A DNA stretch of 57,126 nucleotides, taken from IMG/VR virus record IMGVR_UViG_3300033180_000002, positions 1 to 57,126 of that record; one strand, given 5' to 3'. Each line of letters opens with the position of its first letter. Position 1 is the first letter of the stretch. A model generated the notes under the pieces. The model made no database searches. It saw nothing but the letters and a program-made list of their open reading frames with translations, and was not told where the DNA came from. The position numbers and the translations under genes were made by a program. Shown one piece after another: positions 386 through 57,077 of the stretch. The stretch comes from a virus.

Positions 386-568
386 TCATACGGGTTGTTT
401 TTGATCTTGATTGCGCGGCTCGGCGGGCCACGTGAGCCCGGTGTTCTCATCCTCGTGCACGTCGTGCTGGCCGAGGAGCGTGCACCTGATCCAGTACGGA
501 TCAAGCTGCTCGGGGGTGAAATGCCACCACGAGTGGGTCTCTTCCGCGCACTCGTGGTCGCCGTCCAT
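386..568 (-). CDS. hypothetical acidic protein (60 aa)
   Basis: ORF track entry. The sequence looks protein-like (MDGDHECAEETHSWWHFTPEQLDPYW...). It is tightly packed between neighbouring minus-strand genes. Confidence 0.55.
   Translation of the reverse strand: MDGDHECAEETHSWWHFTPEQLDPYWIRCTLLGQHDVHEDENTGLTWPAEPRNQDQKQPV
397..406 (-). repeat. AT-rich motif copy (GATCAAAAAC)
   Basis: Context CAAGATCAAAAACAA; within CDS 386..568. Confidence 0.8.
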
Positions 569-572
569 CCGC

Positions 573-728: not shown

Positions 729-739
729 GTCGGCGAGCT

Positions 740-2176
740 TCATGCCCTGCCCGCCTGCTTCAGGGTCTTGTTCTGCTGGGCGGTGCGCTGCGCGGCAGCC
801 TTGGCCGCCCTCTGCTTGCGGTAGGCGGCGGCGTCCTTCTTCGACATCTTCGCCACTTTGGCCTGTTCGCGGCGGCGGGCAAGGATGGCGTCGGCGCGCT
901 TGCCGAGGGAGTCCTTCTTCCGCTGCTCCGCCTTGGCGTGCCGCTCGGCGCGGCGGTCCAGCACGTCCTGCTGCTTGACGTCCTGAACGCCGGTTGCCTT
1001 GGCTTTGGCGTTGGTCCCGGCGGCCTGCTTCAGGGTTTGCTGGTGTGGGGCGAGGGCCTTCTTGTACCCGGCGATGGCGCGGCGGGCCATGGCGGCAAGC
1101 TTCGGGTTGGTGGCGTTCTGCGCGGCGACGGCCTGGGCTTGGGCGATGGCCTGGGACAGGCCGTTGACGGCGGTCTGCGCCACCTGGACGGGGTTGGCCT
1201 TGGTGGCGTCCTGCTGGCCAGGTTCAGTGTCGCCGCGCTTCTGGCCTTTGCACAGGCCCGGCTTGTGGGTCTGCATGCAGAACTGGCCGTCGGTGCAGGC
1301 GGACTGCATGAGGCTCATCCCGGCGGCGCGCAGAGCCAGGATCCCCCGGTCTTTGTACTGGCGGTTGCCCATCTTGGTGGGCTCGTTTTTGATCTCCAGC
1401 AGCTCGACGCACCGGCAGTTGATCACCTCGTGCGGCGGCCCGTCCGGGTCGTGCGGGTGCATCATCTGGAAGCCGCCGACGACGAAGGGCTGCGCGAACG
1501 GGACGGTCTGGCCGTCGGCTTCGACATGGTCCGGCCGGGTGCGGGAGTCTTCGGTGGCGAGCCAGCGTTTCACCCACTCGGTGCCGGGATCGTTCTCGAC
1601 GATCATGGCGAAGGCGTCATGTAGCCCACCGTTGTAGGCGCCGACGACTTCGGTGCGGGCGACGGTGCGGGCGCGGTTCTTCCAGGTGGGGATGCTGGTG
1701 TCGCCGAACATCTGTTCGACTTGGGCAGTCACGTCGGGGATAGTTGCGCCGTTGACTGTTGCTGAGTCAATGATCTGCGAGACGAGGCCGTACACCTCGG
1801 TCGGGACGGCTGACAGCCGGTTCTCCCGCTGAGCAATCCAGTTCCGCACGAACGGCCGGGACTCGAATACCGTGCCGTCGGCAAACAGGTCCCGGTACGG
1901 GGCGGCCAGCACCTCGCGGGCCACCTGCGCGGTGTACTGCGCGGTCAGTGCCGTCCACTTCGGAGTCTGCGAGAAGACCGTCAGCGGATCGGGCACCAGG
2001 CCGAGCCGGGCTACACCTCCGGCGAACATGGCCGTCTTCACGGCGGCCATCCACTCCAGCATCATCTCCAGGTAAGCCTCATACAGGGACGGCTCGTACT
2101 GGGCGAACACCTCGGCGGCGGCCTGCTTCTGCGCGGTCGCGCTAGGCAGGGTTGTCGGCTGAGTCACGCTCGACAC
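740..2176 (-). CDS. MuF-like (SPP1 gp7 family) minor capsid / head morphogenesis protein
   Basis: Carries Mu F-domain style motifs TVARTEVVGAYNGG, WLATEDSRTRPDHVEADGQ and VINCRCV. It follows the portal gene after three small ORFs. The GTG at 2167, with GAGGAG 8 nt upstream, may be the real start. Confidence 0.8.
   Translation of the reverse strand: MSSVTQPTTLPSATAQKQAAAEVFAQYEPSLYEAYLEMMLEWMAAVKTAMFAGGVARLGLVPDPLTVFSQTPKWTALTAQYTAQVAREVLAAPYRDLFADGTVFESRPFVRNWIAQRENRLSAVPTEVYGLVSQIIDSATVNGATIPDVTAQVEQMFGDTSIPTWKNRARTVARTEVVGAYNGGLHDAFAMIVENDPGTEWVKRWLATEDSRTRPDHVEADGQTVPFAQPFVVGGFQMMHPHDPDGPPHEVINCRCVELLEIKNEPTKMGNRQYKDRGILALRAAGMSLMQSACTDGQFCMQTHKPGLCKGQKRGDTEPGQQDATKANPVQVAQTAVNGLSQAIAQAQAVAAQNATNPKLAAMARRAIAGYKKALAPHQQTLKQAAGTNAKAKATGVQDVKQQDVLDRRAERHAKAEQRKKDSLGKRADAILARRREQAKVAKMSKKDAAAYRKQRAAKAAAQRTAQQNKTLKQAGRA
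1385..1394 (-). repeat. AT-rich motif copy (GATCAAAAAC)
   Basis: Context GAGATCAAAAACGA; within MuF in sense, read E-I-K-N. Confidence 0.8.
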
Positions 2177-2837: not shown

Positions 2838-2857
2838 CTACATCTCCTCGTTTCTGA

Positions 2858-4822
2858 TCATGGCGCGAGGTCCCCTCGGGTGACGTGCAGGGTGGACTTC
2901 AGCAGCTCCGGGTCGTGCGCGACGCCCCGGGTCATCAGCTCTGTGCAGTAGCCGCCCAGCAGCTCCTCTAAGGCGTCGGCGTCCACACCCAGTGCGGGGG
3001 CCTGCTCGCGGACGTGCGACCACGCACCGGCCAGCAGGGCGGGCACGCGGGAGCGGTCTGGGATGACCTGGGTATGCAGCTCATGCTTCGGTACCGCATA
3101 CCGGGCACGGGCCGGACCGGCGACGAGGCGGCCACCGGCCAGCTCCAGGGCGCGGCGCACGGCGCTGTCGGCGGCGTAGAACAGGGCGGAGCCGTCCAGG
3201 GTGCCGATGGACGCGGCGAGCTGCCCCAGCTTCTGCTTCTTCGGTGCCCCGACGTTGCCCTGCTCGGCGTCGGCGACGGACGGGAACTGCGGCAGGCCGC
3301 GCTGCCCGGCGTCGGCCGGTTCCGTACCAGCCGAGTCGTATCCGGGGTCGCCGGGCATCAGGTCACCCTGGCCAGGGAGCTGCGGCGGCGTGGGCGGGGC
3401 GGGCATGGAGATGTGCGGCAGCCCGAGGATCTTCTGTACCTCGGGGTCGCCCGCGTAGGCGGGCTGGGCCAGTACGAGGGCCTTGACCAGGCTGTACCGC
3501 AGCTCCTTGTCGTCGGGGGCGTCGTCGTCGGTGAAGGCGGCGTTGTCGCGGGCTGCCTTCGCGCTGATCAGCTCCTTCTCGGCGAACTGGAGTGCCTGGT
3601 CGGAGCGGTTGGGGCGGACGGTGAGGGCGGCGATGTCGAACCAGAGGGTCTTCTTCTCCGGGTTCTGGACGCCTGCGGCTTTGAGGGCGGGCTGGAAGTA
3701 GCCGAGGTTGAGGGCGTCGGCGAGCTGGATGAGTAGCGGCTCGATGTGGATCTTGATCGAGGACTCTTCGATCTGCCACGACGACCAGTGATTGCTGCCG
3801 CCCATGCCGGTCAGCACCTCGGGCGGGATGTCCAGCGACATCGCCATGCGCTCGACGGCGTCCTTACGCATCTGGGAGATGTGCTCCGAGATGGTCGAAT
3901 CGAACGTCAAGTGTTTGATCTTGTCCAGGGCCTCAGTGGCTACCTGGAGGATGATCGGCACCACGGCGGCGGCGTTGTCTCGCTGCTGCATCGACGTGGC
4001 CATGGTCCGCTGCAACAGCTCCGCGAAGCCCTCCACGCCCGTGCGCTGCGGCACCCCCGGCGTCTCCTGTGGCGGGCGCGGAAAGTCGATGTTGTCGGGC
4101 AGCAGCAGGATCCCGGCACCGGCAAGGCGGGAATCCAGCTCGGCGAACACCCGCTTTGTGCACTGCTCCAGCTCGCGCAGCACCGGCAGGATGGCCCGCA
4201 CGGTGGAGTCGGCCGCGTCGTGGCGGCGGGGGTGCGGGTTCCACACCCGGATCAGCAGATCCTTCTGCGGGTCCAGCTTGTAATTGCCCCCGCCGTGGGT
4301 GATGGACCGGCGGACCATGATGTCGTCGCCGCGCCGGAACACCTCCGACGACGAGCAGACATACCACTTGTCCTGGTCCGGGGTGCCGTCCTGACCGGTG
4401 TTCCGATACCCCTCGGCGACGATGAAGACATCCCCGGCGGTCATCATGTTGATGCCCATCAGGCGCTGGGCCTGGGCTTTCGCGGCGGGAGTGCCGAACA
4501 TGGTCTCGGCGATCATCTTCGCCTGGGCGTCGGCGGTCTCGTCGCCCACAGTGCCGTCGTCGGCGATGTCGGCCGCGTACATGCGGCAGCGGGAGATGGC
4601 GTTACCGATCCAGTTGACGACGAAGCGCATCTCCCCGCAGATGTCGTAGTGGCGCCACGCCTCCCACTGCCAGCGGTGGTCGCCCAGCTTGAACATCTGC
4701 CAGCTCGCGGCATCGCCGAGGTTGATGGGTACGGCGGCGGCGGTGAGGGCTGAAGGCCGCGTGCCGGGGCCGTCCAGCCCCCCGGCGGGGACCAGCTTCG
4801 GCTTCTTGGTCAACAGCCCCAC
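2858..4822 (-). CDS. portal protein
   Basis: 654 aa. The N-terminal pattern WQWEAWRHYDICGEMRFVVNWIGNAISRCRMY is typical of actinophage portals. It lies between the terminase region and MuF. Confidence 0.85.
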   Translation of the reverse strand: MGLLTKKPKLVPAGGLDGPGTRPSALTAAAVPINLGDAASWQMFKLGDHRWQWEAWRHYDICGEMRFVVNWIGNAISRCRMYAADIADDGTVGDETADAQAKMIAETMFGTPAAKAQAQRLMGINMMTAGDVFIVAEGYRNTGQDGTPDQDKWYVCSSSEVFRRGDDIMVRRSITHGGGNYKLDPQKDLLIRVWNPHPRRHDAADSTVRAILPVLRELEQCTKRVFAELDSRLAGAGILLLPDNIDFPRPPQETPGVPQRTGVEGFAELLQRTMATSMQQRDNAAAVVPIILQVATEALDKIKHLTFDSTISEHISQMRKDAVERMAMSLDIPPEVLTGMGGSNHWSSWQIEESSIKIHIEPLLIQLADALNLGYFQPALKAAGVQNPEKKTLWFDIAALTVRPNRSDQALQFAEKELISAKAARDNAAFTDDDAPDDKELRYSLVKALVLAQPAYAGDPEVQKILGLPHISMPAPPTPPQLPGQGDLMPGDPGYDSAGTEPADAGQRGLPQFPSVADAEQGNVGAPKKQKLGQLAASIGTLDGSALFYAADSAVRRALELAGGRLVAGPARARYAVPKHELHTQVIPDRSRVPALLAGAWSHVREQAPALGVDADALEELLGGYCTELMTRGVAHDPELLKSTLHVTRGDLAP

Positions 4823-7323: not shown

Positions 7324-7332
7324 GACCTTCAT

Positions 7333-7342
7333 GATCGAAAAC
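7333..7342 (+). repeat. AT-rich motif copy (GATCGAAAAC)
   Basis: Context CATGATCGAAAACGC; non-coding, 10 nt from the minihelix at 7280..7323. Confidence 0.8.
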
Positions 7343-7351
7343 GCCACGCTG

Positions 7352-11235: not shown

Positions 11236-12714
11236 CTATCCGTACGCCGAGCTGGAGGGCATCCAGTCGTTGACGGACGGGGCGGCGATGCGGACCAGCC
11301 CCTTCTCTTTGCCCATCAGGAACAGTCCGGCCTGCACGAGGGCGTCGATGCGGTCGGGGCTCTTCGCATCCTCGGGGACCCACGTACAGCATTGGTCCTC
11401 CAGCTCGACGAAGGTGCCGACGTGGTGCCAGCGGTTCTGCTCGTAGCGGGAGGCGACCGGTTCGGCGCGCAGCTTCTTCCCGGCTAGGGAGGTGACTTCC
11501 TTGACCGGCGGCGGACCAGGGGGGAACAGGCAGCCTTGGCACCCCTCGTCCGGGTCGTCCTTGTCCGGGCCGGGGCAGCCCGGCTCGTGCTCCTTCTGCA
11601 TCTCCGCGTAGGCGTCGGTGACGACCTGCATGAGCCACTTCTTGCCCATGTTCGTTTCGATGATCAGCCAGGTGGCGTCGTAGCGCAGGAACATCTCCCA
11701 GGCGCGGCGGGCGGCGGCGTGCCCGACAATCTTCATCGTCCAGTCGGCTAGGACGTAGTCGTCGCCGTTGTAGCCGCGCCCGGCTGCGATCAGGCCGGTC
11801 TCGTCGCCCGCGCCAGTGGCGCCGGGGTCCATGGAGATGACGCGCATCTTCAGTTCGGGCAGGTCGGCAGCCTTGATGCGGTTGTTTTCGATCATGGTGC
11901 GGTTCCACAGTGCACCCTCGATCTCTTCGAGGAGGTGCCCGTACAACTCCTGCAACCCGGCGCGGGTGCCCTCGTAGATCTTCTTGAGCTGGTCGACGAC
12001 CTTCCGCGACAGGTTCATGATGTTGTCGAAGATCGAGCCGGTGGTGATGACGACCGTGCCGTCCGTCTCGTGCTGCCACTCGATCAGCAGCTTGATCGGC
12101 TTCGGGGTGGTGGTGACCACGGCGCGGGGGTGGTCGTCGATGAGCGGGGCGCGCAGCGACGGCAGGATGCCCTCGTACCAGGCGCTGTACGTGTAGCGCC
12201 ACTTGGCCAGCTCGTCGGCCCACAGCCCGGCCAGGTTGAAGCCTCGGCCGACGTCGGCGTTGTCGGCGCCCTCGAAGTAGATGACCTGACCGGACGTGAA
12301 TTCGATCATGAGCTTGGGCGACTTCCAGTACCGGAAGTCCTTGCCCTTCACGAGGCCCATGCGGTGCAGGATCGACAGGATGCCGGAGTTGCCCTCAAGG
12401 CAGGCGGTGCGGCAGTCGTTCAGCGTCTCGGCGATCACCAGCCACTCGGTGCGCTGGCCGAAGGCATCCACGGGATGGCGGAACACCCGGTCGAGGAGGT
12501 CTTCGGCGCCGGTGCGCGTTTTGCCCCAGCCGCGACCGGAGCGGATCAGCCAGACCAGCCAGTCCCCGGGCGGCTTGAACTGCTCGGGCCGCCCGACCCA
12601 CCACCAAGCGCCCTTCTGGATCTCCTCCAGCGTCTCGCGGTTCTGGGCCTGGAGCCATTGACGGCGCAGCGCGGGCGGCAGCAGGGCCAGCTTCTGGGCG
12701 GCGGACAGACTCAT
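11236..12714 (-). CDS. terminase large subunit
   Basis: 492 aa. It has the Walker A-like motif IRSGRGWGKTRTGAED, a C-terminal nuclease-like region, and the expected size and position. Confidence 0.85.
   Translation of the reverse strand: MSLSAAQKLALLPPALRRQWLQAQNRETLEEIQKGAWWWVGRPEQFKPPGDWLVWLIRSGRGWGKTRTGAEDLLDRVFRHPVDAFGQRTEWLVIAETLNDCRTACLEGNSGILSILHRMGLVKGKDFRYWKSPKLMIEFTSGQVIYFEGADNADVGRGFNLAGLWADELAKWRYTYSAWYEGILPSLRAPLIDDHPRAVVTTTPKPIKLLIEWQHETDGTVVITTGSIFDNIMNLSRKVVDQLKKIYEGTRAGLQELYGHLLEEIEGALWNRTMIENNRIKAADLPELKMRVISMDPGATGAGDETGLIAAGRGYNGDDYVLADWTMKIVGHAAARRAWEMFLRYDATWLIIETNMGKKWLMQVVTDAYAEMQKEHEPGCPGPDKDDPDEGCQGCLFPPGPPPVKEVTSLAGKKLRAEPVASRYEQNRWHHVGTFVELEDQCCTWVPEDAKSPDRIDALVQAGLFLMGKEKGLVRIAAPSVNDWMPSSSAYG
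11884..11893 (-). repeat. AT-rich motif copy (GATCGAAAAC)
   Basis: Context CATGATCGAAAACAA; within the large terminase in sense, read M-I-E-N. Confidence 0.8.
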
Positions 12715-12724
12715 GATCGAAAAC
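12715..12724 (+). repeat. AT-rich motif copy (GATCGAAAAC)
   Basis: Context CATGATCGAAAACTA; intergenic, abutting the large-terminase start codon. Confidence 0.8.
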
Positions 12725-12782
12725 TACGCGGGGATGGTGCGTGACCTGCGGGCTGAAGGCACGGGTCGTACATGCGCGGTGC

Positions 12783-14430: not shown

Positions 14431-14819
14431 CCTCGGCTCAGCTTCCTATCGTTTTGGATCATGTACTCGGGGCATCGGCTCCACCGGCACGGGTTTTCAC
14501 GGAACACATGCTCGTACATGTCGGCGTAGCGCTCCTCGTAGAACGCCCACTGCCGCACCCCGCCCTGATGGCCGCAGTGCGAGCGCACCCACCAGCTGAA
14601 CGAGTCGTCACGGGGTAGGCGCTGGTCGGCAGGCCACTGCCCGTCTGGCATGGGGCGTTTCAGCCAGACCACGCCGGGGCGCCCGACGGGGGCATCCCGA
14701 ATGATCCAGCGCTCGGTGTAGCGGGGGGCGGCCGGAGCCCGGCCCTCCGTGGGGAGAGCCGGGTTCTGGCGTTCCTGATTGCGCTCGTGGCGCTTGCGGC
14801 CCTCTGCGGTCACGACCAC
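14427..14819 (-). CDS. hypothetical protein (130 aa)
   Basis: ORF track entry. It is Trp/Cys-rich (WWVRSHCGHQGG...CRWSRCPEY). Confidence 0.5.
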   Translation of the reverse strand: MVVTAEGRKRHERNQERQNPALPTEGRAPAAPRYTERWIIRDAPVGRPGVVWLKRPMPDGQWPADQRLPRDDSFSWWVRSHCGHQGGVRQWAFYEERYADMYEHVFRENPCRWSRCPEYMIQNDRKLSRG

Positions 14820-21112: not shown

Positions 21113-21236
21113 CGCACAGACCCCCGACCTATCCAGGCCGGATGACCCGGGGGTTTCTCAGCCGACGCCGGTTCGGGTGCACACCGGCACGGGCGGCCTG
21201 GAAGGCGACATCCAGGCCGCCCGCCATCCCGAAGTC

Positions 21237-21246
21237 GTTTTTGATC
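21237..21246 (-). repeat. AT-rich motif copy (GATCAAAAAC)
   Basis: Context CATGATCAAAAACGA; intergenic, overlapping the ribosome-binding region of the Ltp-like gene. Confidence 0.8.
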
Positions 21247-21260
21247 ATGGAGGAGAAGAT

Positions 21261-23885: not shown

Positions 23886-24022
23886 ACAGTCGGGGCCGAC
23901 GGACGCAGCGCCGGGCGGAGGAGCGGCACGCCGCTACCGCCCGGCGTCTGGAACTGCTGCCGCTCCAGCGGTCCTACCGGCCCAAGCGCCGCAAGGGCAA
24001 GATCAAAAACGACAGGGGGTAG
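23882..24022 (+). CDS. small basic protein (46 aa), tentative
   Basis: It has a GTGA overlap with the previous stop and is very Arg/Lys-rich. Confidence 0.3.
   Translation: MNSRGRRTQRRAEERHAATARRLELLPLQRSYRPKRRKGKIKNDRG
24001..24010 (+). repeat. AT-rich motif copy (GATCAAAAAC)
   Basis: Context CAAGATCAAAAACGA; at the end of the plus-strand block. Confidence 0.8.
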
Positions 24023-40244: not shown

Positions 40245-40937
40245 TCAGGCCGCGCAGCCGCAGGATGCGGTGGGCGGTGCGAGGTACGTCCACTGAAGGT
40301 GCCGATGCGTGTCGTTCGGCAGGGCGATCAGCAGCTTCTCCGCCGCCCCGGTCGTCATGTTGGCGAGGGCGTTCTTGGGGCCGGTGCCCCAGTTGGTGCC
40401 CTGCTTGGTGCGGCCCGCCACCGTGAACGAGATCGCACCGTTTTCGATCTTGAGGTCGCCGACGGTCCCCTCGATCACGTTCGGGAGCAGGAAATACCCG
40501 TACGGCACCAGCGAGAACGTGCCGAGCGTGACGCACTGAGGCTGCGACATGTTCGACCACACCTCCAGGCCGAACGCGCCCGCCGCGTAGTTGCTCGTCC
40601 GCGTCTGGAAGCCCACGGCCGACGGGGAGGCGGCGTCGTTCAGCACCAGCGTGGAGCCGGTGATCAGCCCGAACAGCTCCGGGTCGACGTTGCAGAAGGT
40701 GATCGTGACATCGATCCACTTGAGCTGCTTCGGCGACTTCTCGTTGACGCACATCACGCCAGCCGCGTTCAGGACCACGATTTCCTGACCCGATTCGACC
40801 TGGTCTTGCATCTCCACCGAGACGAAGCCGGTCGAGACGGCCGACACGCAGGAGCCCACCTTGGGCGTACCGCACGCGTCGATCGACTGGACCCGCATGG
40901 TGGTGCCCTGAATAGGGGCCTGACATACGGCCGTCAT
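40245..40937 (-). CDS. putative major tail protein (230 aa)
   Basis: The size and beta-rich composition fit, but the assignment is tentative because of its early position. Confidence 0.3.
   Translation of the reverse strand: MTAVCQAPIQGTTMRVQSIDACGTPKVGSCVSAVSTGFVSVEMQDQVESGQEIVVLNAAGVMCVNEKSPKQLKWIDVTITFCNVDPELFGLITGSTLVLNDAASPSAVGFQTRTSNYAAGAFGLEVWSNMSQPQCVTLGTFSLVPYGYFLLPNVIEGTVGDLKIENGAISFTVAGRTKQGTNWGTGPKNALANMTTGAAEKLLIALPNDTHRHLQWTYLAPPTASCGCAA
40440..40449 (-). repeat. AT-rich motif copy (GATCGAAAAC)
   Basis: Context CAAGATCGAAAACGG; within CDS 40245..40937 in sense. Confidence 0.8.
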
Positions 40938-44217: not shown

Positions 44218-45897
44218 ATGGAGTCGAACGACGCCAACTTTCTGATCGGTACGCCCGGGGCTTACCAGGCCCGCCAGGAGCTGGAGAAGGCCATCAACCC
44301 ACGCGCGGGGGAGAAGGTCTGCATCGGGGTGCCGCACCTGAACGATGCCGGATGGAACTTCACCGAGTCGGTCCTGCGGATGGTCGCCTACGACAAGGCC
44401 CACGGTGATCACCTACTGCACAATTCGGGCCTCATGAACAATGGCGCCCTGGCCCCGGTGTGGGGCCGCTCGATGGAGCTCTCCCACGCGCGCAACACCG
44501 CGACTGCCGCATTCCTGGCCAGCGACTCAGACTGGCTGCTCTGGTGGGACACCGACATCGGAGCCGAGCCGGACGCCCTGGAGAGGCTGCTCGAAGTCGC
44601 CGACCCGGTGACCGCGCCCATCGTCGGCGGCCTGTGCTTCATCGAGGGCGACTTCGCCCACGACTTCCGGGGCGGCCTGCGCTCCAGCCTGGCCCCCACG
44701 CTGTACGACTGGGCGTGGATCGAACCGAAGTCGGGGATGCCCGGCACGTACAAGATGCTGGCCCGGCAGGAGTGGAACGGCGAGATGACCCGGGTCGGCG
44801 CGACCGGATGCGGCTTCCTGCTGGTGCACCGCTCAGTGTTCGAGAAGATCGCCGAATGGCTCCGGGACCACGGCGCCCCGCCGCACATCTGGTTTGAGCG
44901 CATCCCCGGAGCCGACGGAGAGCTGTGCGGGGAGGACATCTCGTTCTGCCTGCGGGCGCACCAGGTCGGGCTGCCCGTCATGGTGCACACCGGCGTCGTC
45001 ACCACGCACCAGAAGACCGTCTGGTACGGCAGTGAGGACTACCGGATGAAGCCGTTCACGCCGCCCGCCGCGAACATGCGACTGCTGCCGCCGGACCAGT
45101 GGCCAAAGCTGGAGATCAACCGGAACGCCGCCGAGCAGGCCGCGCGCACCTCGCCGATACGCAACAAGCAGGTCCCGGAGGCGACCGAAGAGGTCGCCAT
45201 CGTCGTGCCCGTGGCGCACCGGGACAACGCTTTCACGTTCATGGACTCGCTGATGGCCAGCCTGACCCCCGGGCAGCGCGAGCGGGTGTGGGTGCACGTG
45301 ATGACGGACACCAACGACGCGGCCACGAAGGCGAGCTGGGACGCTCAGGCGCTGCACTACGACAACGTCATAGTCGACCAGCACCGCTACCTGCGGGAGA
45401 TGGGCAGCTTCGCGGAGAAGGTCAACCGGGCCTTCGAGGTATCCGACGAGCCTTGGCTGTTCATCGTCGGGGACGACGTGCGGTTCCATCCGGGCTGGCT
45501 GGACCAGGCGATGGAGGTCAGCCACGGCCCCAACGTGCACGTGGTCGGAACCAACGATCTTGGCAACGCGGCGGTGATGGCTGGCGAGCACGCAACGCAC
45601 CTGTTCATCAGCCGCGCGTATGTCGAACACCTCGGGGCGAGCCTGGACGGGCCGGGCATCGTCTGCCACGAGGGCTACCGGCACTGGTACGTCGACAACG
45701 AGATCGTCGAGCTGGCGAAGAAGCGCAAGGTGTGGGCGCCGTGCCTGGCGTCGCACGTCGAACATCTGCACCCGCTGTTCCGCAAGGGTGCGATGGATGC
45801 GGTGTATGCGATCGGGCAGGCGGCGGCCGAGACGGACCGGGCGTTGTGGCAGCAGCGACACCGGACCATGATCGAAAACGAGGGCGTAGATGCATGA
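44218..45897 (+). CDS. two-domain GT-A fold glycosyltransferase (559 aa)
   Basis: The ATG at 44218 follows GGAGGAGGAGG. Domain 1 has LWWDTDIGAEPD, GCGFLLVHRSVFEKI and GEDISFCLRA. Domain 2 has VAIVVPVAHRD and FIVGDDVRFHPGW. The remaining upstream part of ORF 41998..45897 is antisense artefact. Confidence 0.7.
   Translation: MESNDANFLIGTPGAYQARQELEKAINPRAGEKVCIGVPHLNDAGWNFTESVLRMVAYDKAHGDHLLHNSGLMNNGALAPVWGRSMELSHARNTATAAFLASDSDWLLWWDTDIGAEPDALERLLEVADPVTAPIVGGLCFIEGDFAHDFRGGLRSSLAPTLYDWAWIEPKSGMPGTYKMLARQEWNGEMTRVGATGCGFLLVHRSVFEKIAEWLRDHGAPPHIWFERIPGADGELCGEDISFCLRAHQVGLPVMVHTGVVTTHQKTVWYGSEDYRMKPFTPPAANMRLLPPDQWPKLEINRNAAEQAARTSPIRNKQVPEATEEVAIVVPVAHRDNAFTFMDSLMASLTPGQRERVWVHVMTDTNDAATKASWDAQALHYDNVIVDQHRYLREMGSFAEKVNRAFEVSDEPWLFIVGDDVRFHPGWLDQAMEVSHGPNVHVVGTNDLGNAAVMAGEHATHLFISRAYVEHLGASLDGPGIVCHEGYRHWYVDNEIVELAKKRKVWAPCLASHVEHLHPLFRKGAMDAVYAIGQAAAETDRALWQQRHRTMIENEGVDA
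45870..45879 (+). repeat. AT-rich motif copy (GATCGAAAAC)
   Basis: Context CATGATCGAAAACGA; within the glycosyltransferase in sense, read M-I-E-N. Confidence 0.8.
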
Positions 45898-47404: not shown

Positions 47405-47446
47405 CTCACTCCTCCGGGGTTCCTGTCTGCCATCAGAGTACACCTG

Positions 47447-49638: not shown

Positions 49639-51681
49639 TCACTCCTGGACCAGGGCGACGAGAAGATCACCCATGGCGTCATCGTAATCGGCGCTGCGGT
49701 CCACCGTCGTGGCCGCAGCAACCAGCTCGCCCCATTCGGCCGCCCGCGCGTCCCGGGCCTTCGCCTCCTGCTGCTCGGCGAGCATCCCCCGGGCGATGGC
49801 CCGGCCGAGGGCGTCGGTGTCGAGCGGCGCCGCCCCGGCCATCACCGTCTCGTCCTCGTCACCGACGAGCGGCAGGGCCCCGGCGGCAACGAGGCTGATC
49901 ACCTGCTCCTCCTCGTCGAAGGGAGCGGAGCCGTCCAGCGCTGACGCCGTCATGGCGCGGGGGATCGGGAACCCCGGCGTGATGACGTGCAGGGCGGCCA
50001 TCATCTCCAGGTTTCCGCCGATGCGCCGCCAGTCGCCGGACAGCGGGGTGGCCCGCATGGTGCGCACCGCCGCATCGTCAGCCTCGGGGACGAGGGCACC
50101 GGCCACCCAGATGCCGAACTGGTCTTCGCCCGCGCGCACGAGGGCGCCCAGGCTGGTGGTGCTGTCGTAGTGCTCGGCCGCCGCCCGGTAGCCCAGGTTC
50201 GGCCCGGCATGGCCACCCTTGCCGTACGACAGGCGGCCCACGGGGATGCGGGCGCCGTCGGCAGTGGCCACCTCGCCGGTGTGGAAGTAGGCGTAGTCGG
50301 TGCGCGACTTCGGGGCAACCGTGCAGGAGTCGCCGATACCGACGTGGCAGGTGTCCCAGGCGGCAAGGTGGCCGTACACGCGGCCGTCGTCGGCGATGTG
50401 CAGCGGTGTCGGGCCGGACAGTTTCGGGTCGTCGAACCATTCCTTCGGCGGGGCGTCCGGGGCGGCCCCGGCCAGGAGTGCGGCCATCTTCGCTCCGGCC
50501 TTCCAGTTGTCGGGCAGGCTACCTTCGCAGCCCTTGCGTTTGGCGATGGCGGTCAGCCGGGCCTTGAACTTCGCGTAGGGAATCTGCGGCTTGGCGCGGC
50601 CGTAGGAGCTGACGGCGTCGGGGATGTCGGCGCAGGTGGCGATCGGGAACCGGCGGCCGTCCGGGTCGACGAAATCGGCGTCGTCGAGCTCGCTGCGGAC
50701 GCCCGCCTTGGTGACGTCCGGCGCGGCGTAGGTGCCGCCGCCCATGCCGCCGCCGCCCTGACCCTGCTCGCCGTCGCCACCGGGCGTCTCCGCCCCGCCG
50801 GACTTCTGCTTGGTCTGGGAGGGGAGGCGCCGCTTGGCGAACTCCTCATCGGACAGCTCGATGCCGGATCCCTCGTCGGCCATCTCCTGCGTGTCCTGGG
50901 AGCCGTCCACGTTGGGCTTCTTCTTGGTCTTGCGATTGGGAATGGGGCTGACTGCCTTGCCAGGGGCGACCGCGCCGTCCGACAGCACGTTCCCGGCCAT
51001 CTCGGCGTCGTTTTCGATCTTGGCGTCCCAGACCACATCAGCCCAGTCGAGCTCGACGAGGGCGCCAGCGACCATCGCGGACGAGGTCGTGCCGTCCACA
51101 TTCGGGTCGGACGAGTCGATCGGGATCAGCTTCGCGTGGCCGGACAGCTCGGCGAACGCGGGGATGTGCACGAGGGTGGCGGAGGCGACCCGGCCGGAAC
51201 GGACCATCTTCAGGTGCGGCCCGTCGTAGCCCTCAGCGGCCATGACGGGGCCGCCGCAGCCGCAGTCGCCACCGTGGGCCATCTTCGCGGCCTTCAGCTT
51301 GCCCGCCTGCGCCTTCTTCCAGACGGCGTACGCCTTCGGCTCGGGCACCCGCTCCATCTCGGCGGTGTCGAGGTCGACGGACGGACCGATCACCTTGTTC
51401 TGGGTGAACTTCATCGCGGCCGTGGCGGCGTTGCGCACATCCTCCGGCCACGACTCGTCGTCGTAGAACTCGCCCTTGGCCGGAAGCATCCCGGCCTTCT
51501 CCTTGCCGATGCTGGCGATGTGCCCGACGATCACGGCGTTGGCGTGCCCGCCGGAGTCGCTGGCCACGTACCGCAGGGGCAGCGGCAGGTCGCGGTGGGA
51601 CAGGGCGCCAGCGTCGAACTGGCGGCCGTCACCGGTCGGCTTACCGATGACGGCGATTGGCATCTGCCAGGCGGTTCCCAT
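49639..51681 (-). CDS. capsid maturation protease (680 aa)
   Basis: The N-terminus PIAVIGKPTGDGRQFDAGALSHRDLPLPLRYV and the later YGHLAAWDTCHVGIGDSC resemble actinophage prohead proteases. It sits upstream of the capsid region. Confidence 0.6.
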   Translation of the reverse strand: MGTAWQMPIAVIGKPTGDGRQFDAGALSHRDLPLPLRYVASDSGGHANAVIVGHIASIGKEKAGMLPAKGEFYDDESWPEDVRNAATAAMKFTQNKVIGPSVDLDTAEMERVPEPKAYAVWKKAQAGKLKAAKMAHGGDCGCGGPVMAAEGYDGPHLKMVRSGRVASATLVHIPAFAELSGHAKLIPIDSSDPNVDGTTSSAMVAGALVELDWADVVWDAKIENDAEMAGNVLSDGAVAPGKAVSPIPNRKTKKKPNVDGSQDTQEMADEGSGIELSDEEFAKRRLPSQTKQKSGGAETPGGDGEQGQGGGGMGGGTYAAPDVTKAGVRSELDDADFVDPDGRRFPIATCADIPDAVSSYGRAKPQIPYAKFKARLTAIAKRKGCEGSLPDNWKAGAKMAALLAGAAPDAPPKEWFDDPKLSGPTPLHIADDGRVYGHLAAWDTCHVGIGDSCTVAPKSRTDYAYFHTGEVATADGARIPVGRLSYGKGGHAGPNLGYRAAAEHYDSTTSLGALVRAGEDQFGIWVAGALVPEADDAAVRTMRATPLSGDWRRIGGNLEMMAALHVITPGFPIPRAMTASALDGSAPFDEEEQVISLVAAGALPLVGDEDETVMAGAAPLDTDALGRAIARGMLAEQQEAKARDARAAEWGELVAAATTVDRSADYDDAMGDLLVALVQE
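51010..51019 (-). repeat. AT-rich motif copy (GATCGAAAAC)
   Basis: Context CAAGATCGAAAACGA; within the protease in sense, read K-I-E-N. Confidence 0.8.
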
Positions 51682-52002: not shown

Positions 52003-52041
52003 GACGTCCTCCTTCTGTCAGCTCACACCATACGGCCGCTG

Positions 52042-52278: not shown

Positions 52279-55200
52279 CCCGGCTCCTTCTGGAGAATCA
52301 ACACAGAACGGTTCAGCCAGTTGAAGGCGGGCTTGCCGGGCTGGGCAACGTGGCGGGCGCCGCCGCCAGGGGACATGTGGTGCGTTTCGATCTCGATACC
52401 GTCGATACCCTTCGCTGCGGCGTAGCGGCCCGGGTCGTAGAAAGTGGAGTCCTCGTAGCCGCCACCCTTGGCTTTCGACGCGCGAGGGTTGGCGTGCGAC
52501 TTCTTCGCCACCTTGTCGTACTTCTCGGTGACCGCACTCTTCGGGATGAGCAGGCGCACGATGGATCCCTTGGTGCTGTCCGCGTACTGGGTGGCCACCG
52601 ACTTTTGCGTTGCCAGGTAGTAGCCGTTCCCGAAGATGCCCTTGCCGTAGTAGGCGGGGCCGGAGCGCATCTCCTCGTTGATCTCCTCGGCGGTCTTGCC
52701 GTTCGACCGACCGCTACGCCAGTTGCGTCCACCGGCGCCGGACGTGCCGCGCCACGCCTCGATGTAGTCGCCAGTCGCGAGCAGCCGGTCGATCTCCTTC
52801 TTGTCGAGCACGGTCGGGGTGTCGTCGAAGCCCTGCTGGGCGCCGATCGCGGCCAACCGGCCGTCGGCGGTCTTGCCGTCGTACAGCTTGCGGTCGTTCT
52901 TGATCGTCTGCCGCTGGGCGTCGAACGTGGCCTTGTCGGGGATCAGATCCTTCCCCTTCGACTGCTTGTGGGCGTGCGGCCAGGCGTTGAACGTGGCGGG
53001 TGCCTGACGGCCGCCGGACGGCATGCGGAGCCGCCCCAGCCGCTTGGTGACCGGGCCGGGCCGGGCGATCTGGCCCAGCGTCGTGCCCGTGGCGCCCTGC
53101 GGGAACAGGGAGATGACGTTCGTTTCCAGCTTGCCGCCCGCGATGGGGTGATGCAGCTTGCCGCTGGCGTCGAGAGCCTTGATCTCGGCCTCGGTCATCC
53201 ACTTCGCGTCGGAGGTCTCCGCGCGGGCGTGGGCCGTCGACAGGTCCGGCTTGATCATCGTCGGGACCGAGGCGGCCACCGTCGTGTACTTCCACGGGTG
53301 GCCCGGGACCGAGAACGTGTGGTCGCCGTGCACGAGGGCGTCCTTGAACACGTCGTCCTTGAGGCCCAGCTCCTCGATCGTCTCGCGGGTGGCGCCCTGG
53401 TGCGGGGTTTCCTTCGAGTCGCTGGCGCCGCCGGGGAACGTCCACTTGCCGGGGTCGCTGATGGCGGGGCCGCGCTGGACCATCAGGTAGCGCTTCTCGC
53501 CGGTCTGCGGGTCGGTGTGCTGGAGGAGCAGCCCGGCCGCGCCGTGCGCCCCCCAGACCCGGCCGCCGCCGGGGAGGCTGATCCACCTGTCGCCGGACTG
53601 GCCGCTGTCCTTGGCCTTCTCTAGGCCCTTGAGCGGGGTGGCGTAGCGGACCTGGCCGGGGACCGCATTGGCCGGGGGGATGATCGCGCCGGTCGGGACC
53701 TGGCCGGACGGGGTACCGGCCGGGGTGAACCGGTCGATCAGCTTGCGGGCCTTGTCGGCGGAAGGCCCCTTCGCCGTGGTCGCGATGAACGACAGGTCGC
53801 CGAGGAGGTGGCCCTGCTCCTGGCCGTTGAGCGCGCTGAAGTCGGAGCCGCGCAGCGCACCGTACGTGGAGAGCTGGTGGGCCATGGTGTGCGACTTGCC
53901 GGACGCGTGGACGCCGTAGATGGTGTCCAGGGCGGCCTGCACGTGCGGCGGCACGTTCGCCTGCACGGTCGTCGGCGTGAACCCGGACGGGCTGGCAGCC
54001 GGGGCCGCCGGGTGGAACTTCGCGTTCAGGGCCTGCTGAGATGCGCCGGGGAGCGCTTTGATCCGCTCGTCGATGGCGTCGCGGTACGTCTTGTCCAGGG
54101 AGTCGAAGTCGGCCTTGGGGAGGTCGGTGAGTGTCATCTCCACGGCGAAGTCGCTGAAGGCGCCGCCCGGAGCGGACTGGGAGATGGCGTCGATCTGGTC
54201 GATGTTGAGCTGAGCTGCGGCGTCGCCGAGGTTGAAGTCTTTTGTCCGTAGCGCGTTGTATCGGATCGGGAGGGGAAGGCTCCCGTCGTGTGCGATCTTG
54301 TCCAGGTCGGCGTGAATCAGATCTTGGTCGCCCTGGCTCATGGTGCGGAATTTCGAGATCGGTACGTCGGCGTACACCCGGGTACGGTCGAACGGATTGA
54401 TGATCTTCGTTCCGAAGTTGGCGATGTCCGAAGCGGCCCGCACATCGCGGTCAGCGTAGGAGGTCCGCATCCCCTGGAGGTGGTCAACCAGGGTGGAGGG
54501 CATCACCTTGAACGGGTTGTCCTGCGGCGACCAGGTGAGGACGGGCCCGCCACGCTCGGCGCGGACCTGCGCCTCCTCCAGATGGGAGGTGATGGCGGCC
54601 TGGGTGAACGAGGGTAGCGACTGGTAGTCAGCCGGATCCAGCCTGCGGTAGGTGTCGACAAGCCCCGTGGAAATGAACGGCTTGGCGGCGGCCTGGGCAG
54701 CATCGAGCTGGGCCCCGGTGAACGGGTGCCCCTGCAACTGCCGCAGGGCGATCTGCGTGCCGGTCTTCGCGTGATTGTTGCCCTGCGACAGGATCCGGTC
54801 GGCGAGCGCCCTGCGGACGTTCATCTTCGCGGCGTCGGACAGCGCGTTGAACTCGTCGAGGCGTTCCTGCGGCACTTCGACGTCGCTGCTGGAGATGTGC
54901 AGGAGGTTGTCCACCACGTGGTTGCGGGTGGCCAGCGACCAGGGGCTGCCGGTGGGCACGCCCGGGTCGCCGCGTAGCCCCGTTTCGATGAGGTGCAGGC
55001 GCAGCGCTTTGACGGCTTCGGCGTGGATCGGGTGGGAGGAGGTCAGGTCGGCTTCGGAGGCCCGGAAGATGGCCGTGATGTCGGATGAGGTGAGCCGGGG
55101 GGCGGGCTCGTAGTTGTGCTTGTTTTGCGCCATCTGGATCGAGTTGTACTGCGGGCCGCCGTACGGGCTTTCGATCATGGAGGCGCGCAGCCAGAGCGGC

Positions 55201-57077
55201 AGCGTCGGGTTGTCCTCGGCGACCCGACGCGCTTCCTTCGCCAGGACGGCGCCGGGGGACGTGGGGTCGCCGTACTTCGTCGGGGCCTGGACCCGGGCGT
55301 GCAGGAATTCCGACCACAGCGCGTCGGCATCGACCTTGCCCGCACGGAAGTCCGCCTCGGCCTGCCGCATCCGGTGGACGCCTGGGTGCAGGCCGGTGTA
55401 CTTCGTGATGGCCGCTTCGGCGTCCTTGTCGGCGGGCGCACTGCTGTGCAGCTCCTGTAGCGCGTCGGTGATCTTGCGCTGTTCCTCCGGCTTGGCGGCG
55501 TCAAACTGCGGCTTCGACAGGGCGGAGAGCGCCTTGACTCGGTCGGCGCGCGGAATGGTGAGGAGGTTCGCCGACCGGATGGCGTCGGACAGCGCCGCCG
55601 CGTCCTTGGCGCCCCTGGTCTGCGCCTCGGCGTGCAGCTCGTTCAGCGACGGCTCGTGGTCGCGCTTGGTGCTGTCGGGCTGCGGCCCGGCGTCGATCAT
55701 CTTCTTCAGAGCGGCGGCGCGGAAGGCGGTGTGCGGGGTGGACGACTTGTGGTTCGCGATGAAGTCGAGCCGGGCGGTGATGGTCCGGCGGTCGGCTGCG
55801 TCGAGCCTGCCGATCGAAGTATGGCTGAGCTGCCCGACCCGTTTGATCACATCATCCGAGGGGGCGGCGCTGGCTGCCGCCTTGACGGCTTCGTTCATCG
55901 GGTCGCTGTAGCCCTTGGCGGTGGGAGATGCCGGGCTGACCGGGGCCGGGTGTCTTGATCCAAAACGATCGAGGAGATCCGTCGCGGCCTGCCGCTTCTT
56001 CGGGTCGAGGAACTTCGCCTTGGCGTTGGCGAGGTCGTCGCGGATCGCCTTCTGCTCGGCCGGGGCGAGGCTGTCGAACTCGGCCTTGGACAGCTTGCCG
56101 TACGCGTCGAGGTGGGTCTTGGCCATCTGCGCCTTGGGGGCGCTGCGGTTGGCTACGGCGTTGGCGTGCTGGACGTGCGCGGCGGTGCCCGGCGCGAGGG
56201 GAGCGGACGGGGTGGGGCCGGACGGGGCGCCAGGGGCGGCCGGTGGTGGCGGCGCCGTCGGGGGCAGAGCGTTGCCGCCGTGGGTGTTGGCATGGTCGTG
56301 GGCGTACTTCTCCAGGGCGGCCTGCGTCGAGCTGGTGCGGATCAGCTTCCCGTTGTGCTTGAGGCTGTAGCCCGCGCTGTCGCGGGTGATCCGGTAGCCG
56401 CTGGGCAGGCCCACCGAGGTCGAGGAGACGGAGCCGCCAGGGAGTGGCTTGTTCAGGATGCCGTTTTGATCGCGGGTGCCCCTGCTGGGCGAGGGGGCCG
56501 GAGCGGGCAGTTGCGGCGTCTTGGCGGCCTGGCCGAGGCTGACCTTGCCCGGCGTCGGGACGGGGTGGGAGCCGGGCGCCTTACCGCCGGGCGCGGCGGA
56601 AACGCTCGGGGCGGGCAGCTTGGCCAGCAGGGCTTCGGCCTTGGTCTGCTGCGGGCCGAAGCCGCGCGCCTTGATGGCGGTCAGCTCGTTGCGGATGGTC
56701 GTCTTGTCGGCGTCGGGTAGGCCAGCCCACTCCTGCGGGGTGATCTTGTCGGCCTTGTCCAGCTTGTAGGTGTCGGTGACCTTCGGCTGGGTGATGACGA
56801 ACGCGGGGCCGCGACCGGCGACGGTCGGCTTCTTCTGCTTCGGCCCGAGCGGTAGCGGCGGGGGCGTCTTGACCTGGACGCCTGCCGCCTTGGTGACGGC
56901 CTGCCCGGCGGTGTGTGCCTGCCCTCCGGCGAGGTCAGCCTTCTGGTTGACCTGCCCGAGCGGTACGGCCTGCGCGTTGTGGGCCGGGTGGGTGGGGGCG
57001 GGCTTCGCCTTGATCTCCGTCAGCAGGCGGCGGGGGATGGGTTTGCCCTGGGAGCGCAAGTCGGCGATGCGCTTCAC
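52275..57077 (-). CDS. giant protein, main body (1,600 of about 1,700 aa): degenerate helical repeats + Nudix hydrolase domain + C-terminal ADP-ribosyltransferase domain
   Basis: The Nudix box is GGASDSKETPHQGATRETIEELGL (about 53361-53432). The ART-like R/S-T/ExE elements are YIEAWRGTS, GYYLATQKS and GIDGIEIE (about 52275-52890). The true start is the ATG at 378 in the first repeat copy. Confidence 0.8.
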   Translation of the reverse strand: MKRIADLRSQGKPIPRRLLTEIKAKPAPTHPAHNAQAVPLGQVNQKADLAGGQAHTAGQAVTKAAGVQVKTPPPLPLGPKQKKPTVAGRGPAFVITQPKVTDTYKLDKADKITPQEWAGLPDADKTTIRNELTAIKARGFGPQQTKAEALLAKLPAPSVSAAPGGKAPGSHPVPTPGKVSLGQAAKTPQLPAPAPSPSRGTRDQNGILNKPLPGGSVSSTSVGLPSGYRITRDSAGYSLKHNGKLIRTSSTQAALEKYAHDHANTHGGNALPPTAPPPPAAPGAPSGPTPSAPLAPGTAAHVQHANAVANRSAPKAQMAKTHLDAYGKLSKAEFDSLAPAEQKAIRDDLANAKAKFLDPKKRQAATDLLDRFGSRHPAPVSPASPTAKGYSDPMNEAVKAAASAAPSDDVIKRVGQLSHTSIGRLDAADRRTITARLDFIANHKSSTPHTAFRAAALKKMIDAGPQPDSTKRDHEPSLNELHAEAQTRGAKDAAALSDAIRSANLLTIPRADRVKALSALSKPQFDAAKPEEQRKITDALQELHSSAPADKDAEAAITKYTGLHPGVHRMRQAEADFRAGKVDADALWSEFLHARVQAPTKYGDPTSPGAVLAKEARRVAEDNPTLPLWLRASMIESPYGGPQYNSIQMAQNKHNYEPAPRLTSSDITAIFRASEADLTSSHPIHAEAVKALRLHLIETGLRGDPGVPTGSPWSLATRNHVVDNLLHISSSDVEVPQERLDEFNALSDAAKMNVRRALADRILSQGNNHAKTGTQIALRQLQGHPFTGAQLDAAQAAAKPFISTGLVDTYRRLDPADYQSLPSFTQAAITSHLEEAQVRAERGGPVLTWSPQDNPFKVMPSTLVDHLQGMRTSYADRDVRAASDIANFGTKIINPFDRTRVYADVPISKFRTMSQGDQDLIHADLDKIAHDGSLPLPIRYNALRTKDFNLGDAAAQLNIDQIDAISQSAPGGAFSDFAVEMTLTDLPKADFDSLDKTYRDAIDERIKALPGASQQALNAKFHPAAPAASPSGFTPTTVQANVPPHVQAALDTIYGVHASGKSHTMAHQLSTYGALRGSDFSALNGQEQGHLLGDLSFIATTAKGPSADKARKLIDRFTPAGTPSGQVPTGAIIPPANAVPGQVRYATPLKGLEKAKDSGQSGDRWISLPGGGRVWGAHGAAGLLLQHTDPQTGEKRYLMVQRGPAISDPGKWTFPGGASDSKETPHQGATRETIEELGLKDDVFKDALVHGDHTFSVPGHPWKYTTVAASVPTMIKPDLSTAHARAETSDAKWMTEAEIKALDASGKLHHPIAGGKLETNVISLFPQGATGTTLGQIARPGPVTKRLGRLRMPSGGRQAPATFNAWPHAHKQSKGKDLIPDKATFDAQRQTIKNDRKLYDGKTADGRLAAIGAQQGFDDTPTVLDKKEIDRLLATGDYIEAWRGTSGAGGRNWRSGRSNGKTAEEINEEMRSGPAYYGKGIFGNGYYLATQKSVATQYADSTKGSIVRLLIPKSAVTEKYDKVAKKSHANPRASKAKGGGYEDSTFYDPGRYAAAKGIDGIEIETHHMSPGGGARHVAQPGKPAFNWLNRSVLILQKEPG

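Follow-up and report, generated by a model that had tools for sequence, protein, structure and literature searches.

A dispersed, asymmetric GATCRAAAAC element conserved as duplex DNA in an uncultured phage lineage: candidate docking sites for a phage protein

Here, we describe a short asymmetric element with the core GATCRAAAAC (R is G or A), which recurs at about 20 places in the phage genome recorded in IMG/VR as IMGVR_UViG_3300033180_000002; the window that we analyzed is the whole stretch of 57,126 nucleotides. Selection acts on the element as double-stranded DNA, not on a peptide nor on one RNA strand. Tentatively, and as a reading that stops a little short of probable, we take the copies to be some 20 dispersed operator or roadblock sites for a lineage-specific, putative duplex-DNA-binding protein, a system that would stand closest to the stoperators of mycobacteriophages.

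The core occurs in 15 exact copies in the window, eight on the plus and seven on the minus strand, each where a first-pass annotation of this DNA had placed it. Dinucleotide-preserving shuffles produced a mean of 0.05 copies and a maximum of 1, corresponding to an enrichment of about 300-fold over chance and agreeing with the rough estimate of far less than one copy given in that annotation. Shuffles that preserve codons, which it had named as a check, do not reach the observed counts: whole codons shuffled within genes regenerated about 0.07 of the 11 genic copies, and synonymous codons shuffled with the protein kept regenerated about 1.6. Chance or a codon artefact as the origin of the motif is ruled out by these three shuffles and by the test of codon choice described below. 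The near copies at 25821 (+), ending in AAAAT, 14451 (-, GATCCAAAAC), 3911 (-, GATCAAACAC) and 56463 (-, GATCAAAAC) were found again as reported, while the one given as 55956 (+), also GATCCAAAAC, lies at 55957 (+). Two degenerate copies had been overlooked, at 2850 (-, GATCAGAAAC) and 55167 (-, GATCGAAAGC), and relatives have perfect copies at both places. With the 15 exact and about six degenerate copies, the genome thus holds some 20 sites.

The two ends of the window are an exact direct repeat of 127 bp (1-127 = 57000-57126), which means that the window is a circular assembly and a complete phage genome of 56,999 bp; G+C content is 68% across all 57,126 bases. Genes were called by codon usage, the caller being trained on the window's long open reading frames (ORFs) with high G+C at third codon positions (GC3). 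Virion, packaging and lysis functions are represented by a MuF-like protein, portal, TerS, TerL, an 800-amino-acid tape-measure-like protein, tail proteins and lysin/holin, replication and recombination by an ERF-family recombinase, a replication initiator, two ParB-like proteins and an HNH endonuclease (22550-23014). Further genes encode an Ltp-like lipoprotein, a macro-domain protein (5174-5734, -), a glycosyltransferase and an ORF of about 1,700 amino acids with a NUDIX domain, referred to here as the giant gene. GenBank phages revealed no nucleotide match and no TerL more than 36% identical; there is no close relative among them. In IMG/VR, contigs of 54-59 kb represent about 30 relatives whose TerL is 74-87% identical, and the next TerL relatives beyond them reach at most 37%, a drop from 74% to 37% by which the lineage stands isolated. 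No prophage relatives were found in GTDB genomes (one per species).

Within this lineage, each close-relative locus carries 0.14-0.43 copies per kb. All 16 partly or fully reassembled relatives have 9-16 exact copies each and share one consensus, and no sub-lineage variants of the motif that might co-vary with a protein were seen among them. Fifty-three loci from more distant phages, several with about 70% G+C, contain essentially no copies, nor was any other word over-represented in them to a comparable degree; TerL relatives of at most 37% identity likewise lack the motif. Retrieval from IMG/VR by the motif returned lineage members plus chance hits only, every multi-copy G+C-rich stretch belonging to the lineage. 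A scan of the GTDB genomes with the 15-mer gave, among the 120 matches listed, only single hits in unrelated taxa, on which ground a genome-wide oriented or uptake signal of the host (Chi-, DUS- or KOPS-like) was rejected. The searchable literature yielded the motif sequence itself in primers only.

The copies are also syntenic. In 23 of 25 loci one copy directly adjoins the start of terL, and in 26 of 27 another lies at +820 from that start, inside the gene. Relatives were where the first-pass annotation had suggested looking for conservation, and in 138 comparisons of orthologous copies the exact 10-mer was kept in 111, against 13 predicted from the identity of the flanks (54-87%). The copies might instead be short conserved linkers that promote homologous exchange of modules between co-infecting relatives, perhaps through the ERF-family recombinase that the genome encodes; the copies at 2850, 14451, 7333 and 24001 lie exactly at junctions between conserved and variable genes. 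About half of the copies, however, sit in uniformly conserved genes, and 15 bp is short for recombinase-mediated exchange. A break fraction of at least 0.6 was found at 41% of sites, compared with 22% of random positions and 57% of ordinary gene starts. With alignability break-points no commoner at the sites than at gene boundaries, recombination junctions were rejected, and we give the exchange of modules hardly any credence.

That DNA is the conserved object follows from three observations. Antisense or non-coding copies (12715, 33557, 38684 and 7333) are retained to the same degree as sense copies (11884, 35778 and 51010). Coding copies use the rare codons GAA and AAA: seven of the eight Ile-Glu-Asn tripeptides in the proteome are written ATC-GAA-AAC, though GAA accounts for 17% of Glu codons. 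Where orthologous copies are coding, some relatives have G and others A at the R position, which flips the residue between Glu and Lys. The sense copies are indeed read in the frame x-I-(E/K)-N first proposed for them, nine of 10 being xxG-ATC-RAA-AAC and hence (K/M)-I-(E/K)-N. Neither the Glu/Lys flips nor the conservation of antisense and intergenic copies is compatible with selection on a peptide, which was therefore rejected, in accordance with the first-pass view that the unit is DNA.

A logo pooled from 293 distinct site contexts in 141 flank-similarity groups reads y-C(0.89)-A(0.95)-W-G-A-T-C-R-A-A-A-A-C-G(0.83)-A(0.73)-y. The flank consensus of about 15 bp described before is therein recovered and extended to y-C-A-W-GATCRAAAAC-G-A-y plus a downstream box; the conservation footprint among orthologues runs from -3 to +11, with a weaker signal to about +21. 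This second box, purine-rich GGAGAT(G/C), lies about two helical turns from the main box, is weaker and is present at about 40% of sites, with GGAG from +15 in 17% of contexts, GAT from +18 to +21 in about 43% (background about 4%) and ATG from +19 in 19%. Being found in every positional class, antisense intragenic copies included, it is part of the DNA element and not a by-product of ribosome-binding sites. An example of the element as a 30-bp oligonucleotide is CAAGATCGAAAACGACGCGGAGATG. No dyad symmetry beyond GATC is present in the pooled logo, in line with the first-pass statement that the motif is not otherwise palindromic.

The embedded GATC could make the sites targets of sequence-specific base modification, and a class I methyltransferase-like gene is present at 45890-46447. 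Its product resembles small-molecule or protein methyltransferases, though, and the gene adjoins that of the glycosyltransferase and is shared by no more than 5 of 11 relatives; protein scans yielded no DNA methyltransferase family. As the genome contains 392 GATC, as a context of 15-25 bp is unusual for a methyltransferase, and as the enrichment near gene starts reported below would be left unexplained, we consider modification highly improbable.

The Hin half-site is read by a single helix-turn-helix domain together with a minor-groove arm on an A/T tract. Our element shares the layout of an A/T tract beside GAT, which by analogy would fit helix-turn-helix plus minor-groove recognition. Its reverse complement (CGTTTTTGATCW, CGTTTT(T/C)GATCW) shares 10 of 12 positions with the Hin half-site (hix, GGTTTTTGATAA), a lead at the sequence level, and also resembles pixL (GGTTTTCGAGAG) and bixL (GGTATTCGATAA) of the Din family of invertases (PMC3241671, Table 3). 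Unlike the invertase sites hix, gix, pix and bix, in each of which a 2-bp core separates two inverted half-sites and which come in pairs, one on either side of an invertible segment, the element shows one strong half-site, with at most a vestigial GAT 17-19 bp away, in about 20 scattered copies. GAT is retained in the downstream box at about 40% of sites, but there is no T-tract, and no resolvase or invertase gene was detected, the Resolvase family giving no hit in any protein scan.

With respect to genes, 292 distinct site contexts were evaluated. In either orientation, 28% lie 0-25 nucleotides upstream of a start codon, about four-fold more than random positions (6.7%). Forward copies 9-25 nucleotides upstream of a called start, usually 2-6 nucleotides 5' of the Shine-Dalgarno sequence, make up 18% of contexts (random 3.3%), and reverse copies 0-20 nucleotides upstream of a start make up 11% (random 3.4%). 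The forward class, together with a Shine-Dalgarno-like GGAG at +15 and an ATG at +19 that are enriched about 20-fold, would suit an element acting in RNA, be it an A-rich translation enhancer or stand-by site, a processing site, or a partner in sense-antisense pairing within polycistronic mRNAs. Both orientations occur within each transcription unit, the 13 nucleotides of the copy at the terL start form a perfect complement to those of the copy 820 nucleotides inside terL, and what follows the motif is less structured than random sequence, the 26-32 nucleotides on its downstream side being less stable than random windows. Against such a role, copies antisense to strongly supported genes are equally conserved, reverse copies near starts put the complementary sequence into the mRNA, GGAG followed by ATG without a spacer is no working ribosome-binding geometry, and most copies are far from any start. 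Local secondary structure gave no signal on either strand (mean z -0.11 and -0.13), and terminator-like hits were no more frequent at the sites than in shuffles; a hairpin, an intrinsic terminator or a structured RNA was therefore rejected for want of any stability signal. Altogether, we find a function in RNA very unlikely.

Two starts in the window deserve closer attention. In all relatives, the giant gene is preceded by the motif, 6-7 nucleotides, a TAnnnT hexamer (TATGAT in the window), 6 nucleotides and ATG; leaderless promoters of actinobacteria have this geometry, and the motif would have a predicted position of about -32 to -18. The terL start reads TAGTTTTCGATC-ATG on the minus strand, with TAGTTT as a -10-like hexamer followed by 6 nucleotides and ATG, an in-frame TAG 12 nucleotides upstream and no Shine-Dalgarno sequence; this start, too, is predicted to be leaderless. 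It is the only site that keeps TA, not the usual GA, at +10/+11 in relatives, and the TAGTTT hexamer results from this. One gene family, present in relatives only, shows the motif, 6-7 nucleotides, TAGGAT, 6-7 nucleotides and ATG. A TAnnnT after the motif was seen only at the giant gene and in this family, and the pooled logo has no general TA signal at +16/+17. A promoter element, whether of sigma-70 type or phage-specific, was rejected, as there is no fixed -10, one third of the copies are antisense and separate canonical promoters exist elsewhere. Leaderless-like starts also occur without the motif, at 32142-34544 (-), with TAGGAT 8 nucleotides 5' of ATG, and at 22012-22302 (+), with TAGCCT at 6 nucleotides.

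The copies are concentrated in structural and late (virion) genes, and two zones are free of them in all relatives. The first, of 5.5 kb, spans the genes for the ParB-like proteins, the replication initiator and ERF as well as the divergent intergenic region of the early genes; the second is a 4-kb block of small genes and tRNA, 1-5 kb downstream of the terL start (about 7.7-11.7 kb). Summed over the relatives, the two zones amount to about 115 kb and 108 kb, respectively, without a single copy, where about 29 and 27 would be expected.

Candidates for a binding protein were sought among the non-structural proteins that are core to the lineage (10-11 of 11 assemblies), namely TerS (12833-13570), the two ParB-like proteins and the products of 16996-17337, 14427-14819, 13881-14249, 10007-10363, 10530-10787 and 9674-9877; the replication initiator (4 of 11) and the HNH endonuclease (7 of 11 relatives) are not core. 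Scans with Pfam and PHROGs detected no DNA-binding family in the small core proteins. The product of 16996-17337, an early protein of 113 amino acids with 190 homologues, all apparently of this lineage, had been called Xis-like with a helix-turn-helix; this could not be upheld, as no DNA-binding family and no Pfam or PDB match was found. As a binder candidate it was set aside, having no family or PDB hit and an AlphaFold2 model too poor for a search (pLDDT 59).

The ParB-like proteins, encoded at 14810-15598 and 15595-16482, offer an explanation of their own: they could load at the sites as KorB, Noc or ParB does at its cognate sequences, and the clamps could spread to silence, segregate or organize the genome for packaging. 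Both genes are core to the lineage (11 of 11 assemblies) and lie within the motif-free early region beside terS, the number and spread of sites (about 20 on 57 kb) resemble those of the KorB sites on RK2, of which there are 12, and a plasmid-like prophage would be in keeping with the lack of a detected integrase. However, the sites known for ParB, KorB and Noc are palindromes to which dimers bind, and the motif has no dyad symmetry beyond GATC, in contrast to the palindromic ParB-type sites of 13-16 bp. No ParA-like ATPase was detected, the ParA family being absent from the Pfam and PHROGs results, and the similarity to ParB itself is weak: the first protein has PHROGs ParB-like hits and DUF6551 with no match to 4UMK, the second PHROGs ParB-like hits and a match to 4UMK at E = 0.02 only. 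ParB-like proteins are thus encoded and the palindromic site is lacking; we regard loading of ParB-like clamps as improbable.

The first-pass annotation knew of no described motif of this kind, which was too strong, since P1 C1 operators, the conserved inverted repeats of phiC31, the stoperators of Cluster A phages and the start-associated sequences (SAS) of Cluster K phages are all dispersed phage motifs of the same general kind. In P1 (asymmetric 17-bp C1 operators), RK2 (KorB) and phiC31 (inverted repeats), one regulator serves a dozen or more sites over a replicon of 40-90 kb, some of them far from promoters. KorB and phiC31 sites are palindromic and P1 operators overlap promoters. Our element shares the dispersed layout, and no homologue of these three regulators was detected.

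In Cluster A mycobacteriophages, a repressor bound at stoperators halts the elongation of transcription. Their stoperators, recognized by repressors of the L5 gp71 type, are asymmetric 13-bp sites numbering 20-30 per genome, a few of them in promoters and most not, and they point predominantly in one orientation relative to transcription (PMC6550527); such a system has also been reported for relatives of Streptomyces phage R4 (PMC10276819). The element described here resembles them in being a short asymmetric sequence with many syntenic copies over an actinophage-sized genome and a lineage-specific consensus (PMC6550527, PMC10276819). It differs in its indifference to transcription, with 14 sense and 7 antisense copies among 21 sites (two-sided binomial p about 0.19, in support of the first-pass statement that orientation is unbiased), and in lying mostly inside genes, whereas stoperators are oriented with transcription and occupy mainly short intergenic gaps. 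Moreover, it is longer, has a second box and is absent from the early region, while stoperators spread over both arms. Cluster A phages also carry a recognizable repressor plus an integrase or parABS; none of these was found here in the Pfam and PHROGs scans, the two ParB-like genes notwithstanding. Having no orientation bias, a mostly intragenic location and no recognizable repressor, integrase or parA, the element was not filed as a stoperator system.

The SAS and extended SAS (ESAS) of Cluster K mycobacteriophages are an asymmetric 13-bp repeat at gene starts that is specific to this cluster, is shared by its subclusters and has a mechanism not yet known; they contain the Shine-Dalgarno core, stand 3-7 bp away from the start codon, all point the same way and occur in non-structural genes only (PMC3203893). 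Asymmetry, lineage specificity and association with gene starts are common to both, whereas only about 28% of our contexts are near starts, in both orientations, with the motif 5' of the Shine-Dalgarno sequence and the copies mainly in structural or late genes.

Localized single-strand interruptions offer another parallel. The nick sites in virion DNA of T5, phiKMV-like and tf/LUZ24-like phages have a short asymmetric consensus at about 4-14 conserved positions per genome, on one strand, and are lineage-specific and of unknown function (PMC3517423). A site-specific nickase acting at our sites would account for the short asymmetric consensus, the 10-20 copies per genome, the synteny and the lineage specificity, which mirror those of the nick consensus sites (PMC3517423), and an HNH endonuclease is encoded at 22550-23014. 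Because copies are found on both strands (8 plus, 7 minus), nicking would depart from the described cases, all on one strand (PMC3517423); in addition, the HNH gene is present in 7 of 11 relatives only, the element measures 15-25 bp against 7-9 bp for the nick consensus of T5 and tf, and enrichment at gene starts has not been described for nick sites. We judge nicking to be improbable too, slightly more so than the loading of ParB-like clamps.

Protein binding fits best among the functions listed in the first-pass annotation, with nicking, modification and recombination not favored, on account of the copies on both strands, the lack of a DNA methyltransferase family and the break-points that are not enriched, respectively. 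The main box with its information content and its tolerance at W and R, the indifference to orientation, the synteny, the proximity to starts and promoters, and the site-free early region fit docking sites for one protein. According to the operator/roadblock reading that we favor, one sequence-specific protein, which the phage itself probably encodes in its motif-free early region, would dock at about 20 dispersed sites in duplex DNA. The main box yCAWGATCRAAAACGA and the weaker GGAGAT(G/C) box could be contacted by a monomer with two DNA contacts, or by a helix-turn-helix with a minor-groove arm on the A-tract. Once bound, the protein would control expression of late, virion, lysis and accessory genes: at the predicted promoters of the giant gene and terL it might occlude the -35 or the -10/start region, and inside and between genes it may serve as a roadblock or an architectural mark. 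Dispersed, lineage-specific, asymmetric phage motifs are already known as a kind; for this one we infer the function, that is, binding by a protein, the identity of that protein and its effect on transcription. What is unusual about it is the embedding of copies in coding sequence at a cost in codon preference, the indifference to orientation and the second box.

Several points weigh against this reading. No repressor, integrase or recognizable transcription factor was found by Pfam or PHROGs, many small proteins being without a family, and the GTDB genomes contain no prophage copies. As many as 72% of contexts are not near a start (within 45 nucleotides upstream) but mostly mid-gene, 189 being inside genes, and the lack of an orientation bias relative to transcription (14:7) is unlike stoperators. 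The geometry at the predicted promoters is inconsistent, with the motif at -32..-18 in forward orientation at the giant gene and at -13..+3 in reverse orientation at terL; this difference argues against the motif being a promoter element itself and is compatible with a bound protein that occludes promoters. A variant that we hold to be unlikely, which would be a kind of genome-wide control not described before, sees in the copies about 20 orientation-independent docking sites, placed in virion coding sequence through recoding to rare codons, by which an unrecognized early protein would silence late genes or organize the DNA until replication titrates it, as a copy-number timer and not for immunity, in a lytic or non-integrating phage.

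Turning to the individual copies from left to right, the one at 395..409 (-), CAAGATCAAAAACAA, is followed by 4 nucleotides, the -10-like TATGAT, 6 nucleotides and the ATG of the giant gene, putting it at about -32 to -18 of the predicted leaderless promoter; the same arrangement is present in relatives L044, L046, L057, L058, L061, L064, L067 and L376. In the MuF-like gene, a sense copy at 1383..1397 (-) is read E-I-K-N and is exact in 12 of 18 orthologues, with G and A alternating. The degenerate copy GATCAGAAAC at 2848..2862 (-), perfect in relatives, lies at the 3' end of the portal gene, 12 nucleotides 5' of the next ATG. An exact copy at 7330..7344 (+) is antisense to local transcription, and its CAT provides the start codon of a minus-strand ORF at 7018-7332 that had not been called. 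This ORF (104 amino acids, high GC3) was missed by the gene caller and has its ATG formed by the motif; inside it, ARAGORN reports a 'tRNA-???' with a 4-base anticodon (7057-7146, -), a call that is probably spurious.

Within terL, the copy at 11882..11896 (-), read T-M-I-E-N, falls between the ATPase and nuclease parts and is exact in 21 of 22 orthologues, and the reversed copy abutting the start, at 12712..12726 (+), is exact in 10 of 11 well-anchored orthologues. These two (11884, -, and 12715, +) are 831 bp apart in opposite orientation and form a perfect 13-nucleotide inverted repeat, CATGATCGAAAAC, which is present in nearly all relatives. The degenerate copy GATCCAAAAC at 14449..14463 (-), perfect in most relatives, lies at the 3' end of gene 14427-14819 and 20 nucleotides 5' of the next ATG. 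At 21235..21249 (-), the reversed copy directly precedes the Shine-Dalgarno sequence in front of the Ltp-like lipoprotein gene (GTTTTTGATCATGGAGGAGAAGATATG), and copies of this reverse, Shine-Dalgarno-adjacent type are also found in relatives. The sense copy in the HNH endonuclease gene, at 22918..22932 (+), is in a region variable among relatives, and the exact copy at 23998..24012 (+) lies at the end of the rightward gene block, 25 nucleotides 5' of the start of the small gene 24036-24188. The variant GATCGAAAAT at 25818..25832 (+) is antisense in the holin-like gene, with the variant or an exact copy in 15 of 16 orthologues.

Two copies are in the 800-amino-acid tape-measure-like gene: 33554..33568 (+), antisense, N-V-F-D-L on the gene strand and exact in 11 of 14 orthologues, and 34339..34353 (-), near the 5' end, sense, K-I-E-N and exact in 10 of 16. 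This pair (33557, +, and 34341, -) is again in opposite orientation, 784 bp apart. Over the whole window, 4 of 15 inter-site gaps measure 0.78-1.08 kb, with about 1 expected; that size window was chosen post hoc and is not relied on. Sense copies follow in gene 35541-35897 at 35776..35790 (-), exact in 14 of 15 orthologues, and in gene 40245-40937 (230 amino acids, virion region) at 40438..40452 (-), exact in 14 of 18 and with one mismatch in the others; between them, gene 37631-38956 has an antisense copy at 38681..38695 (+), exact in 5 of 6. At the 3' end of the glycosyltransferase gene, the copy at 45867..45881 (+) lies 10 nucleotides 5' of the ATG of the methyltransferase-like gene. In a gene of 680 amino acids, the sense copy at 51008..51022 (-) is read K-I-E-N-D-A-E-M, continues into the second box GAGATG and is exact in 9 of 10 well-anchored orthologues. 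The giant gene contains the degenerate sense copy GATCGAAAGC at 55165..55179 (-), exact in some relatives, and an antisense variant at 55954..55968 (+), GATCCAAAAC followed by GGAGATCC, the same variant being kept in relatives.

A second repeated element, (TTGAC..)-N17-(gTG)TAnnCT followed by a conserved GnGnGn(A/C)GACAG, was also detected, TGTATGCTGTGCGTAGACAG for example occurring three times nearly identically. It is located at 6158-6175 (-), 7003-7020 (-), 10387-10404 (-), 16881-16898 (-), 19015-19032 (+), 47423-47440 (-), 47471-47488 (+), 48801-48818 (+) and 52015-52032 (-), and once within the holin-like gene at 25769-25785 (-). With this one exception the copies are intergenic; they are co-directional with the downstream gene, and none adjoins a GATCRAAAAC site. 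This looks like a family of promoters of the host sigma-A type with a conserved initial transcribed region or operator.

The gene content revealed some further features. The giant gene, read across the circle from 52275-57125 (-) and 1-378 (-), comes directly after the MuF-like gene, and its product has NUDIX, at residues of about 1210-1317, as its sole recognizable domain; it is poorly conserved, 3 of 11 relatives aligning over at least half its length. Together with the separate macro-domain protein, it suggests a counter-defense cargo related to ADP-ribose. The replication-initiator gene at 17486-18271 (+; PHROGs 1408 and 270) is present in 4 of 11 relatives, though its neighbors are conserved, and at its position NCBI contig JAWVGZ010006763 (L148) has different genes of 280 and 309 amino acids; the region looks like a replaceable replication module. 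Weak matches were obtained to a HicA toxin at 20009-20224 (+; E = 0.001, below the Pfam cut-off) and to AbrB/antitoxin-like proteins at 9674-9877 (-). The two genes are not linked, and both are conserved in 9-10 of 11 relatives.

For metagenomics, the motif is a near-diagnostic marker of lineage members. If the sites bind a regulator, an uncultured, abundant phage lineage of soil type would control or organize its late genes through sites within coding sequence, where a DNA signal overrides codon preference and even amino-acid charge. This would be a clean case of dual coding, with a compact 25-bp protein-DNA pair for synthetic biology at high G+C, and the stoperator idea would come to apply to phages other than temperate, Cluster A-like ones.

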